This document shows, in pieces, positions 48,241-53,468 of a DNA stretch of 64,000 nt. Location: contig OZ024742.1 in the NCBI GenBank assembly GCA_964016885.1, positions 26,226,001 through 26,290,000 on the forward strand. Direction: 5' to 3'. Position 1 is the first letter of the stretch. Every line of letters starts with the position of its first letter. The translations under genes were made by a program, and so were the position numbers. This DNA is from Eledone cirrhosa (taxonomy: Eukaryota). The notes under the pieces are model-generated. The model had not been told where the DNA came from, searched no databases, and saw only the letters and a list, made by a program, of their open reading frames with translations.

Positions 48241-49161
48241 TTACTTCACATCCACCAATAACCCCCCCTTATTATCCGGTTCACTTACCTAATATCTTCA
48301 CTTTCCATTGTTTACTTCCCTATTTCCTTCACTAACTGATTGAAAAAGTCACGTGCGTTTTCCACTACAGATATTTTTTATTTTTATTTTTATTTTTTAT
48401 TTTTGCACAGCCAATCTTACAATTTTATATTTGTACTTACTTATCCACAAAGTTTTTTACACCCTGTATCTATGTGTCTGAACGCCTTAATGTGTGTATA
48501 CTTTCTATATATGTACATGAGCGCCTACGTATGTGCGCGCGGGTGCGTGTATATATATATATATATGTATATGTATGTGTATGTGTCTTTATATCCGTGT
48601 TTTTACATCTAGGTTTTATGTTTTGTTTCTTTTTTCTTCTCCCCTTTTTTTACATCCTCATTTTTATGCGTGTGCATACAAACAGATCAATATGCGTGAG
48701 TGTAAGTATGTTTGTGATGTTCCTAGGATGGTTTGATCGGCGGTGGATGTAGTGCAGATTGTCATTAGGTTTCCTGTATGGGTAGTACAGGTCGTTTTCG
48801 AGGTCGAGGGTCACGTCCAGGAAGTTTAGTCGGGTCAGGGACGTTTGTAGGGTTAATTTAAATCCCCAGTCGCGGAAGAATCTGATACACCTATTTGCTT
48901 TTCTTCACTCGCAGTATTTTTTCTTTCCTATATATTTCTACCCCCCATTGTTCTACCTACCGTTCCGACTTCCTCCCCCTCCCCCTCCCCTGTATCTTCT
49001 TTGACCTCATGCCCAGCTGTAGCTGGCACTACCAACGCTTGATTGGGTCTACTCCACCCCCTCCCCTCTTTCTCCTACTGGCAGGTTTAGCCACCATCTC
49101 CCCTACTAATTTGCAACCACAGAATTACTACTGATTTTTGACAATCACTTTGACCATATAT

Positions 49162-49273
49162 GGAATTACCCCTTGAGAAGATCGGCTATTTAAATACCAG
49201 GATAAATTTTCATTTAGTCCAGAATTAGCCGTCGAAACGGCTTGAGCTCAGCTGTCGGGGTCTTACTGGTTCC
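49162..49273 (+). ncRNA. Type I hammerhead with U3-A8 core in the 5' pLTR (family C)
   Basis: ACCCC-TTGAGAA-GA(T)CGGCTA...TAGCCGTC-GAAA-CGGC...GCTG-TC-GGGGT; distal GGAAT/GTTCC pairing. Confidence 0.75.
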
Positions 49274-49446
49274 TATTACCCACTCTACTACCTCAAGTAT
49301 TGAGTACTTTGGTGCGTTATGGTCCACCTGGTTCCTTACCACATTGCCTTCGTTATCTAGCTCCTACTTCCGTAGTAGAGCACTTTCCGACCCTACCACG
49401 CCGTATCCAGACTTTTCCGCTAAGCTCAATTCATTTCACCCGCACC

Positions 49447-51608
49447 ATGCGAAAACACAACATTGACTTCTCTACCAAGAACATCCCAATCCCACCGAAA
49501 AAACTTTACCTTCGGATGCTCACGAAAAAAATCGATCTATTTGCGAAAAGACTTAGATGGAGAACTTTTTTCTATGACAGATATTGCGACAACCAAACTT
49601 CGGCACCAAGGAGAGATTCGGATTTATTACCGACAAATCTCCGCCCCTGAACCCCTTGCTCGCACCCTTCGAGAATGACCTCTTCCAACTGGTCAAGAAC
49701 ATTAAATTTGAACCCAGACACAACCGATTCCTACAAAAACTCCGTAGCAACTTAACAGAGTATGATAACACAAATGACATCATGGTGCATTCGGATAAAA
49801 CTGGGAACCTATACTTTGTCAACCCTGACAGATACCACACACTGATCAGGAGCAGCCTAAACTCCACCTATAAAAAGGCCAACCACCCTTGCATCGAGGA
49901 CATAAATCGAGATGGACAACAAATCACCTCCAGCCTCGGGGTCGCCGACCGCACGGAACCTCTAGACCCACGGACACCATACTTCACACTGAAGGACCAT
50001 AAATCCGATTTTGACCGTAAACCCTCTATCAGGCTTATTAACCCAACGAAGACCGACATAGGGAGAATCAGCAAAAAAATCCTAGACCGCGTGATACCAA
50101 AAGTCAAGCAACACACCCGACTTAGCCTATGGATCAACACCCAGGAAGTAATCTCCTGGTTCAGCAATATGGAGGATAAACGAGAAACTAAATTCATACA
50201 GTTCGACATAGAGAGCTACTATGCTTCAATCACCTTACCGCTACTTACTGCTGCCTTGGACTTCGCCGAAACACTTGTGCCCATCACTGACCAGGAAAGA
50301 AAAATCATCCTCCACGCCAGGAAGACAGTCTTACTCTTTGACGACTCTAAATGGATAAAAAGAGCTCCCGACTCACCCTTCGACGTCAGCATGGGCGCCA
50401 CGGATTCGGCGGAGGTCACAGATCTTATAGGATTATTCCTAATAGCCAAACTCACTGATATGTTTCCTGCATTCGGTGGTGGATTGTACCGTGATGATGG
50501 GCTCCTTACCCTTAAAGGGTACAACCCCAGTAGTACAGATCGGGTCCGGAAACAATTAATCAGATTCTTCCGCGACTGGGGATTTAAAATAACCCTACAA
50601 ACGTCCCTGACCCGAGTAAACTTCCTGGACGTGACCCTCGACCTCGAAAACGACCTGTACTACCCATACAGGAAACCTAATGACAATCTGCACTACATCC
50701 ACCGCCGATCAAACCATCCTAGGAACATCACAAACAACCTGGTCAAAAACATCTCCCTCCGCATATCCCGTTTGTCAGCTAATGAGCGGATATTCGATGA
50801 ACATGCGCCTTATTACAACCAGGCCCTCAAGCGGAGTGGTTTCCGGGAGGAAATATCCTACTGTCCAGCTCCCATTAGCGGAACCAGCAAGAGACACCGC
50901 CGCTCACGCAATGTAACATGGTTCAATCCTCCCCACAACGCAGAGGTGACAACTCCCATCGGGAAACTATTCTTTAGGCTCATTGAAAAACACTTCCCAT
51001 TACAACACCGCTACCACAACATAATTAACAAAAATACCATCAAACTCTCTTACAGCACTACACCAAACTTCGCACAAAACATCGTCTCCTCTAACAACAA
51101 AAAACTCAACCCCGATGGCAGAAATAACCTAAATAGCAATGGAGAACCGACCAGGAGGTGTAACTGCCCGGATAGATCTATTTGCCCACTCGACAATAGA
51201 TGCAGAGACCGTAATGTGATCTAACAGTGCAACGTGAGGACGGATACCTTCAACAAAGCCTATATAGGACTTACCGCATGTGACTTCAAGACCCGGCTAT
51301 ACCAACATAGACATACCTTCCGAAACCCGGCCCGGCTTCACGCCACTACACTTTCGGGCCACATATGAGACCTCAAGGACAACAACATCACCTATGATCT
51401 CACTTGGAGATTACTGTCCAGAGCCAATTCTTACACGGGAGGACGCCGTCCGTGCAATTTATGCTCGGAGGAAACTTTACAGATGCTGTTTTCGACGGAC
51501 CAACTCCTAAACAAGAAAGATGAACTGGTTACTGCATGTAAACATAGATTGCGTAGGACTTACCTCGCCCTCAAACCCGATAATGACCCGGGGGGGGGGG
51601 TAGACTAG
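49447..51608 (+). pseudogene. PLE polyprotein (RT plus Cys-rich linker plus GIY-YIG endonuclease) with one frameshift and two stops
   Basis: ATG 49447 MRKHNIDFSTKNIPIP...RLRWRTFF; frameshift at ~49590; SDKTGN, FDIESYY, SMGATDSAE, GLYRDDG, FLDV; CNC...CPL..C; VI*(TAA 51222)QC...AYIGLT; HI*(TGA 51366); CNLC..E...CKH. Confidence 0.9.
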
Positions 51609-52700
51609 GGCTATAACACCCCACTTGCCGATTTTGCAATGGGTAACCCCTGCTTGCCAAGGGAGACGTAAGATCTTCTTTGTATTCTTTTATCGCTTCC
51701 TTTATTTCCTTCCCCCCTCTCTCCTTAGTCCTTCTACCCCAGCTCTTCTCCTTTGTCGGCGTCTTTTCTCGCCCACCCGAGGCTGCCCTTTGGCCCCTTG
51801 TAGCCTTAGTACCCCCACCCCCTCCCCTAGTCTATGATAGATTTGGCGGACTCCGCCCTTTATAGCAGTTGGTTTAGACCCCGGATACTTGTCCCCTTTT
51901 TCCGACCGCTCCCACTATTCTCTGTGCCCTCTATATTTCTTAGTGGCACTTATGCCTTATTTTTTCGTTTCAGTATTTCTTTCTTCGCTTTTCTTTTGGG
52001 CGGGGTGGATTCTGAATTTATTTTTCCGTATTCTACCTTTACTTCGTACGAAATTTCATGTAGCTTGTTTTAGATCTTTTAGAGTTAGCATTAGTATATA
52101 TTTTTCTCGGGACTCAGAATTATTATCTCGTACTAGTTCACTTTGCTGCACTGGGTGGTTGCTGGCATTGTGCCCGGGATGGAAACCTTTATTGTTTATT
52201 TCATGGTAGTCTCTTTAGTATTTTGGCCCCTTTTGTTGACCCGTCACCGTATCTTTTACGTACTTATACCTCTTAAAAGGGTCCTTGCCTAATCCGTCCC
52301 ACCTAGTTCTTTTACTTATTTCTTTATTTCTTTACTTCTTTCTTTCTTTATTTATTTATTTATTCTAGCCTAACAATAGCTAGAGACCAAGGTCGTAGAA
52401 TTTAATTTACTTTACTTTTTTCTCTACACTTATTTGCTTTTCTTCACTCGCAGTATTTTTTCTTTCCTATATATTTCTACCCCCCATTGTTCTACCTACC
52501 GTTCCGACTTCCTCCCCCTCCCCTTCCCCTGTATCTTCTTTGACCTCATGCCCAGCTGTAGCTGGCACTACCAACACTTGATTGGGTCTACTCCACCCCC
52601 TCCCCTCTTTCTCCTACTGGCAGGTTTAGCCACCATCTCCCCTACTAATTTGCAACCACAGAATTACTACTGATTTTTGACAATCACTTTGACCATATAT

Positions 52701-52812
52701 GGAATTACCCCTTGAGAAGATCGGCTATTTAAATACCAGGATAAATTTTCATTTAGTCCAGAATTAGCCGTCGAAACGGCTTGAGCTCAGCTGTCGGGGT
52801 CTTACTGGTTCC
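52701..52812 (+). ncRNA. Type I hammerhead with U3-A8 core in the 3' pLTR (family C)
   Basis: Identical to 49162-49273. Confidence 0.75.
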
Positions 52813-53468
52813 TATTACCCACTCTACTACCTCAAGTATTGAGTACTTTGGTGCGTTATGGTCCACCTGGTTCCTTACCACATTTCCTTCGTTATATATG
52901 TATATATATATATATATATATATATATATATATATATATATATATATATATATATATATATATATATATATATGTGTGTGTGTGTGTGTGTGTGTGTGTG
53001 TGTGTGTTTATATTTGTCTGTGTGTATTTTTGTATAATTGTTTATGTGTGTATATATATAATAGCCTCAGAAACGACATGAGCTCTGCCGTCGGGGTCAT
53101 ACTTTTTCCTATATGTATATATATATACGTATATGTATATGTATGTATATATGTGTGTATTTGCATGGCTGTGTGTGTGTGTGAGTATATATATGCATCT
53201 GTATATATATGTATGTGTATGTATATGCATAATTACATACAGTGATTTAATGCTTATTTTCATTGATCATTTGCTCCACTAACTTGTTGAGTGCTCTAAA
53301 TCAGCTATAAACATTTATACCCTTTTCTAATTATTTATTTATTTAATATTTGTCGTATTCCCAACTATTTGTTTACACCTTTCACTTTTTTATTTTTACA
53401 TATATATAATATTTATGTGTTTTCTTATATATGTGTGTGTGTGTATATGTATGTATATATATACATAT

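Follow-up and report, generated by a model that had tools for sequence, protein, structure and literature searches.

The window analysed here is a 64,000-nucleotide stretch of the Eledone cirrhosa genome (assembly GCA_964016885.1, contig OZ024742.1, positions 26,226,001 to 26,290,000), a 3.0-Gb assembly in which TA repeats are abundant. At 48886–52895 the window contains a Penelope-like element (PLE), which we read, with a probability of about 70%, as a young Hydra-clade retrotransposon whose hammerhead ribozyme, with a U3–A8 core pair, cuts a minority of the templates for reverse transcription and whose promoter would lie in the stem II loop of that same ribozyme. The role of PLE hammerheads has been stated to be unclear (PMC8557442). 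The observations behind this reading are the domain order and motifs of the protein, the hammerhead motif, the history of the subfamilies, and the points at which genomic copies begin and end.

The two pseudo-long terminal repeats (pLTRs) of the element are near-identical, as an earlier note on this DNA had described, and each contains, on the coding strand, the order ACCCC-TTGAGAA-stem II-GAAA-stem III-GTC-GGGGT. The youth of the element that the note proposed is borne out. Its open reading frame (ORF) is broken in the window by a one-base loss near 49596 and by stops at 51222 and 51366; an intact copy, which the note had suggested looking for, was found at one of the 18 larger loci fetched (L074). 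This copy has a stop-free frame of 718 amino acids, retains the hammerhead motif at both ends and differs from the window element by 24 substitutions in 2,377 aligned bases (∼99% identity). A reading of the TGA at 51366 as selenocysteine was rejected; the intact copy has tryptophan there and no conserved cysteine is found at that position. Neither the damage to the ORF nor an inverted internal piece at 48709–48886 had been recorded in the note.

Judged by domain order and motifs, the element is a Hydra-clade PLE with a C-terminal endonuclease. In the intact frame the reverse transcriptase (RT) motif YRDD stands at residue 415 and the GIY-YIG motifs VIYQC and YIGLT follow at 658 and 673, so that the RT comes first and the endonuclease last. 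The same frame contains RLRWR (102), DKT (184), CNCPDRSIC (639), CNLCSEE (737) and CKH (765), and thus has the CxCx5C linker, CxxC before the conserved glutamate and CxH after the conserved asparagine. Its sole cysteine cluster stands after the RT. Hydra elements are distinguished by a C-terminal endonuclease, RWK, DKT, CxCx5C, CxxC and CxH around the conserved E and N, and (TA)n targeting, and Naiads by an N-terminal endonuclease, DKA, CxC and CCHH (PMC8557442). In the present element a single ORF, a C-terminal GIY-YIG endonuclease, an RWK-type motif with DKT, and insertion into (TA)n were found, and when compared by eye with Fig. S7 of PMC8557442 the protein resembles the rows for Hydra rather than those for Penelope, Nematis or Neptune. 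A homolog search returned 251 proteins at an E value of 1e-10 or better; among the 120 listed, DKT/S is present in 119 and the linker cysteines in 99. One homolog (P0006), which shares 42% identity with the element protein over 700 amino acids, appears by eye to be close to Hydra-2_Amil. In Pfam searches with the window ORF, the intact copy and three homologs, no family exceeded its curated cut-off, and a PDB profile search gave no matches, so the domain calls rest on motifs.

The earlier note had instead taken the element for a probable Naiad, partly on its STKNIPIP/RLRW N-terminus. That start fits Hydra-1_Obim by eye, and a Naiad element with an overlooked ribozyme is extremely improbable. 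The TA-tract targeting and the length of ∼3.5 kb would suit a Naiad; however, (TA)n targeting is also found in Hydra elements, and the C-terminal endonuclease, DKT rather than DKA, the CxCx5C linker, the lack of a CxC upstream of the RT and the lack of CCHH all contradict that assignment, the domain order being sufficient to refute it. With the Naiad assignment rejected, the implied surprise, that a ribozyme had turned up in a clade reported to have none, falls away.

The motif has the three helices of a type I hammerhead around N3-UGA-N7-N8-A, GAAA and NUH, with helix I open, and its minimum-energy fold is the three-helix hammerhead with an additional inner hairpin in the stem II loop. A core pattern in which positions 3, 7 and 8 were left free matched the genome 5,684 times, against a single match for the reversed control, and the motif therefore recurs beyond chance. 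In this register N7 is any of the four bases, and U4-G5-A6, A9 and G10.1–C11.1 are constant, several of these being fixed by the patterns themselves. One pair in stem II shows a compensatory change. The window copy and its subfamily have a Watson–Crick 3–8 pair, U3–A8. No hammerhead was present among the 88 Rfam matches up to E 10 in 46000–54000, so standard searches miss the U3–A8 motif, as the earlier note had predicted for searches based on CTGANGA. A descriptor scan of 77 Hydra-like metagenome loci gave 39 hits, of which 37 are C3–G8, one is a credible U3–A8 and one is due to chance; the descriptor also fires on 8/77 minus strands and on 1–6/77 shuffles. The credible hit, at position 2103 of a marine metagenome contig (L200), is a compact U3–A8 hammerhead 3′ of the ORF of an independent Hydra-like element, and the other U3–A8 hit (L205) was dropped as chance in view of its position inside an ORF. 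U3–A8 covariation occurs in natural hammerheads (PMC3088659), and the core alone is an already reported variant, known from a Schistosoma Cercyon PLE.

The proposal in the earlier note that U3 and A8 are both features of the family stands for A8 and not for U3, since 1,343 of the 5,684 matches carry a C3·A8 mismatch; only 7 are C3–G8. The history of this pair was followed in two trees of hand-chosen loci, taken from the matches listed and mostly from one contig (C1). The endonuclease-region tree (25 rows), unrooted and without the most distant subfamily because no linked ORF was obtained for it, groups the young U3–A8 copies, including the window element, on a branch with support of 100/100. 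The 250-nt ribozyme region, with position 3 masked, gave a tree of 62 rows that includes the most distant subfamily and whose bootstrap is not fully settled; it places the C3·A8 groups between old and young U3–A8 groups (branch 99/98). Both trees are ladders with this arrangement. With the most divergent group, which has U3, as the outgroup, the series reads as U3–A8 to C3·A8 and back to U3–A8, and at least two changes would be needed whatever the root. The computed probability of the hammerhead fold (medians of 3–12 copies) is 0.012–0.066 in the C3 groups versus 0.07–0.51 in the U3 groups, the window subfamily having the highest value, 0.51; in the competing hairpin the 3′ strand of stem II pairs with the 5′ strand of stem III.

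If the ribozyme cuts RNA that is then reverse transcribed, some genomic copies should begin exactly at the scissile bond, before G49257. The bond is read through in 20,096 long-tail copies that retain GTC|GGGGT. Junctions in which both bases before the bond are changed gave 590 matches, compared with 52 at a control site at −8 (where the pattern is longer and so somewhat stricter), 131 at +5 and 165 at +24. The controls themselves contain cases in which an inverted arm stops in the cut-site ACCCC (8 of 15 inspected at +5 and 5–6 of 20 at +24). Within a single prefix class, ∼165 junctions fall at the bond (from 28 of 100 among the matches listed) versus 42 one base further on. On inspection of 30 cut-site loci, 22 were true 5′ junctions, seven had an extra G and one lacked C17. 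The estimated number of cut-site junctions captured is ∼430, perhaps 770 in all, or 2–4% of copies. In the seven loci with an additional base (L209, L211, L213, L215, L218, L223 and L234) the addition is a single G placed precisely at the scissile bond. This is most simply explained by run slippage; a mark of template jumping or ligation may also be conceived.

Many of the cut-site junctions are fold-backs that combine a short-tail arm with a long-tail arm, both ending at G1.1. In the window subfamily, 59 fold-backs have a spacer of 1–3 bases, and in 37 of these it consists purely of A/T, in every case A followed by T (hand count). The same order recurs in other sets of fold-backs, with a probability of ∼1e-4 by chance over three sets, and is what would be expected if an untemplated A were added to each cDNA end before head-to-head joining. 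Fold-backs with A/T spacers number 37 per 6,954 copies in the window subfamily versus 10 per 7,414 in a group in which 75% of the copies have C3 (p 3e-5), and this latter group is well represented among fold-backs of another type, centred on the GAGCTC loop. The difference is suggestive of reduced cutting by C3·A8. It is only suggestive because direct cut-site junctions with TA tracts are about equal (four mostly-C3 versus five from the window group, in the first 100 of the 590 matches) and because no clear difference emerges between the old groups with U3 and those with C3 (six versus two A/T-spacer fold-backs).

Those two comparisons belong to a body of observations that weigh against cleavage. 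The fold energies of the two pLTR motifs are no better than those of shuffled sequences (z of 0.41 and −0.82). Covariation is weak: in a 12-row alignment of closely related sequences, one of 20 pairs, in stem II, changes on both sides, and the covariation score exceeds 494 of 500 shuffles while most measures do not beat them. The scissile bond is not the main end of copies, read-through exceeding cut-site ends by ∼25–50 to 1. Palindromic microhomology yields fold-backs in the absence of cutting, as at ∼155 loci centred on the GAGCTC loop (301 matches), and perfect ACCCC|GGGGT joins (61 of the 100 listed among 203 matches) were not counted as proof because CG microhomology can produce them. Subfamilies in which the 3–8 pair is broken reached 1,343 copies or more, and cut-site junctions are found in them as well. 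Lastly, the cut-site peak of a second, unrelated U3–A8 family, described below, is weak (seven junctions versus three at +5).

These observations could be accommodated if the hammerhead were vestigial or non-catalytic, its fold serving as a protein-binding structure, with the peak at G49257 being due either to microhomology at the CG/G-run or to an RT that stalls between stems I and III. The amplification of the C3·A8 subfamilies without a compensating G8 and their low fold probabilities fit such an explanation, as do the frequent microhomology fold-backs and the excess of read-through copies. However, the junction peak is one base wide and excludes C17, microhomology cannot give A-then-T spacers, and the lineage regained U3, its youngest subfamily combining the top fold probability with a fourfold higher number of A/T-spacer fold-backs per copy. 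A vestigial hammerhead is therefore considered quite improbable, and the copy ends at G49257 very likely derive from RNA cut by the ribozyme. The RNA 5′ end that the earlier note predicted at 49257 is thus seen as a minor class of copy ends; the main 5′ end lies upstream, near 49216.

Among 60 copies sampled from the first 64 matches listed, 41 start 35–45 nt upstream of the cut, 13 at 3–32 nt and six beyond 100 nt. The modal end, at −40/−41, is A49216 within TTAGTC, a hexamer that we take to resemble the metazoan initiator consensus. One of TTAGTC, TCAGTC, TTAGTT or TCAGTA is present in 85 of the 110 full-length copies sampled, and in 86 of the 110 there is a TATA-like variant (TATTTATT, TATTTAAA, TATTCATA or TATTCAAA), weakly conserved between subfamilies. 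TA tracts are joined directly to A49216 in 852 copies. In the 100 of these matches listed, the base before the join is G in 19, C in seven, A in seven and T, which is ambiguous, in 67 (hand count), and TG outnumbers the symmetric AC by 16 to 3 (p 0.004). In L1 and SVA, an untemplated G has been interpreted as a cap that was copied (PMC4859970). TATA and initiator-like motifs have been noted in a pLTR (PMC3846280) and Penelope has an internal promoter (PMC2377424); in neither paper, in the parts available, is a promoter inside a ribozyme described, unlike the candidate start here. From these genomic junctions, A49216 is probably a capped transcription start.

The proposed start also has its difficulties. 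The TATA-like box is poorly conserved and is missing from the most distant group, and the 5′ pLTR of the window copy extends 330 nt upstream of A49216, so that longer templates, from tandem read-through or circles, must also exist. Alternatively, the ribozyme might cut and the cluster at −35 to −45 might mark where the RT is halted by the inner hairpin of loop II or by a bound protein, or a splice acceptor. The ends do scatter across 11 nt, partly within the 3′ strand of the inner hairpin, the region resembles a pyrimidine tract followed by AG, and introns are possible in PLE pLTRs (PMC2377424). Against a stop, stems I and III, which are stronger, and the 3′ strand of stem II would already lie behind an RT that reached this point; against splicing, TA tracts or inverted arms, with no common exon, lie upstream of the junctions. 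Furthermore, the extra base is G, versus A/T at the cut site, and the initiator-like hexamer persists even in the most distant group, where the hairpin does not. An RT stop or splice site is accordingly regarded as unlikely, and transcription initiation at A49216 is preferred.

Copies have two alternative 3′ ends, 49276 and 49356, both running into TA tracts, and these are, by analogy with the anole element of PMC11167929, likely to be internal start sites of reverse transcription. The ends are also seen in contigs from four runs, all of one study that may include the sample used for the assembly, and are not independent support. In the proposed mechanism, capped transcripts would begin at about A49216. 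Their 5′ end could not self-cleave because only the 3′ half of the ribozyme is present there, and the complete ribozyme would be supplied by the 3′ pLTR. The RT–endonuclease would break a TA tract and cDNA would start at two internal sites, one per DNA end, at 49276 and 49356 or the corresponding positions of the 3′ pLTR. When priming occurs close to the 5′ end of the RNA, run-off at the cap would give the very common insertions of 60–140 nt; priming in an uncut 3′ pLTR would give long copies; and priming on cut RNA, with run-off at G49257/G52796 and addition of an untemplated A, would give the minor class of copies with ends at the scissile bond. By separating the priming sites from the coding RNA, cleavage would compete with full-length copying, a consequence to which we give about even odds; a weak or even mismatched (C3·A8) core would then be tolerated because of this competition.

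The templates longer than one unit could also have arisen by a route compatible with the above mechanism, in which a read-through transcript is cut by both of its ribozymes, the released RNA of unit length is circularised by ligation and the RT passes the junction to give pLTR–ORF–pLTR, the model of PMC4209133. Copies of more than one unit do exist (the window element, the intact copy and L075), as do tandem arrays of pLTR-derived units with the motif (the 299-nt array and 593-nt family described below). However, a ligated junction and uncut RNA look alike in genomic sequence, tandem read-through accounts for the same copies, and the extra bases in seven of 30 junctions are G alone, as run slippage would give. 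Circular templates thus appear somewhat unlikely.

Table 1. Features of the element and its relatives in the window (positions are those of the window)
Feature	Position	Strand	Remarks
Inverted internal fragment	48709–48886	−	Copy of the element's own ORF 50559–50736, adjoining the 5′ pLTR; 178 nt at 98.9% identity (blastn)
5′ pLTR	48886–49356	+	Partial tandem copy of the 3′ end; 471 nt, 4 mismatches versus 3′ pLTR
Type I hammerhead	49168–49261	+	Stem I 49168–72/49257–61; core U3..A9 49173–79; stem II with long loop; GAAA 49234–37; stem III; GUC 49254–56; predicted cut after 49256; from sequence, fold, descriptor scan and pair counts
TATA-like box (TATTTAAA)	49187–49194	+	Where the stem II loop begins; 29 nt upstream of the likely transcription start; putative function
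Initiator-like TTAGTC	49214–49219	+	A49216 likely transcription start, centre of the main 5′-end cluster
80-nt tail	49276–49356	+	Between the two 3′ ends of copies (49276, 49356), which run into TA tracts at loci
RT and C-terminal GIY-YIG ORF	49447–51608	+	Single ORF, Hydra clade by motifs; ATG at 49447; YRDD 50487–50498
3′ untranslated region, unique part	51609–52424	+	Pyrimidine-rich; length differs among copies
3′ pLTR	52425–52895	+	Second hammerhead 52707–52800, GUC 52793–52795; long tail; TA tract at its end
Short derivative	53062–53112	+	Inverted duplicate at 46683–46733 within the 680-bp flank duplication
Short fold-back derivative	9869–10096		In TA tract; each arm breaks off within or close to the stem II loop
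Short fold-back derivative	14034–14183		In TA tract
Older relative	30075–31309		Inverted arrangement; U3–A8, A7 core; endonuclease remnant

The relatives within the window largely agree with what the earlier note had reported (Table 1). The older relative at 30–31 kb retains TTGAAAA at 30075–30302 (minus strand), and its plus-strand partner at 31162–31309 has damaged stems I and II. The four short derivatives named in the note all exist at TA tracts; two of them, at 46683–46733 and 53062–53112, are not independent insertions because both lie within one inverted duplication of 680 bp (46230–46907/52892–53562, 87.6%), which encloses an old Hydra fragment and the element.

The window is unusually dense in ribozymes of the PLE type. 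The second, unrelated U3–A8 family occupies 40300–41240, with motifs at 41082 (+) and 40618 (−); it has a 593-nt unit in tandem and inverted arrays, resembles a retrozyme and has 1,468 intact matches. At the loci fetched (L328–L357) its core is TTGATAA in 25 of 26 readable cases, and no PLE ORF is linked to it in 29 of 30. A C3–G8 hammerhead family with a stem II region of ∼50 nt and a palindromic stem III, in part in inverted pairs, is found at 2249 (−), 3139 (+), 59061 (−), 59602 (−) and 60213 (+), and an inverted repeat at 59049–59420/59854–60225 (372 nt, 98% complementary) includes a long-loop C3–G8 hammerhead. More C3–G8 descriptor hits, of at least four other types and several with a long loop II, lie at 57968 (+), 44932 (−), 46974 (−), 45951 (−), 19542 (+), 54138 (−) and 10229 (−). 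Degraded fragments of other Hydra-type PLE ORFs, 27–44% identical to the intact protein, are present at 46891–48015 (+), 4119–4844 and 26523–26900. Elsewhere in the genome (G000:C2:356029903–356031750, L008–L014), at least seven units of 299 nt, derived from the ribozyme, 5′ untranslated region and ORF start of the present family and with a 20-nt deletion in loop II, form a tandem array that is possibly a newborn retrozyme.

Among known systems, the closest likeness is to the Hydra clade itself (Hydra-1_Obim and Hydra-2_Amil; PMC8557442), with which the element shares its domain order, motifs, lack of CCHH, (TA)n targeting, a hammerhead 3′ of the ORF and a tail. It differs in that the core is CUGANGA and loop 2 is short in all 26 Hydra rows of file S2 of that paper, whereas this family has U3–A8 or C3·A8 and a loop of ∼39 nt, together with a stem III of 5–6 bp, a unit of ∼3.5 kb (Hydra units are usually <3 kb) and the 80-nt tail. 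The canonical CUGANGA hammerhead is a reported trait of Hydra rather than part of its definition, and is not the form seen here, C3–G8 occurring in 7 of 5,684 matches. The Cercyon PLEs of Schistosoma mansoni (PMC4209133) have the same U3–A8 covariation in a pLTR, likewise missed by a standard descriptor; however, they have no real helix III and are thought to act as dimers, whereas helix III is stable here and has a palindromic loop, and neither a lineage with C3·A8 nor a record of junctions or a nested start is described in the available parts of that paper. The Poseidon element PAc of the green anole (PMC11167929) likewise has two internal RT starts bounding a tail, AT-rich targets and a hammerhead upstream of the priming sites. 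It belongs to a different clade, has a C3–G8 core and, in the parts available, showed no RNA-seq ends at the cut site, in contrast to the genomic pile-up of junctions found here; its hammerhead is protein-assisted and cleavage was dispensable for insertion in vitro. Non-LTR retrozymes (bioRxiv 10.64898/2026.07.22.740005) are tandem hammerhead units derived from pLTRs, which this genome also contains (the 299-nt array), whereas the present element is structurally autonomous and encodes an RT–endonuclease.

A U3–A8 Hydra hammerhead, a C3·A8 lineage, a PLE cut-site junction peak and a start site in loop II were not found in the paper listings and passages that the literature search covered. What is new here is the likely genomic record of cutting and the probable start site nested in the ribozyme. 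Taken as a whole, the most extended form of the proposal is tentative, its odds falling slightly short of even: the element would carry its promoter inside its own ribozyme, so that half a ribozyme stands at the 5′ end and only the 3′ copy cuts, removing the priming sites; the genome would record capped versus cut templates and so show cleavage by a PLE hammerhead in vivo during transposition; and the master lineage would have lost the 3–8 pair, amplified with reduced cutting and then regained it.

With >20,000 copies in the family, 5′ junctions can be tallied at single-base resolution. Should the scissile-bond peak represent cleavage, it would be in vivo evidence obtained from a genome alone, and the same count could be applied to any high-copy PLE. 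The series from U3–A8 through C3·A8 to U3–A8 would then amount to a natural mutation-and-reversion experiment on the core pair.

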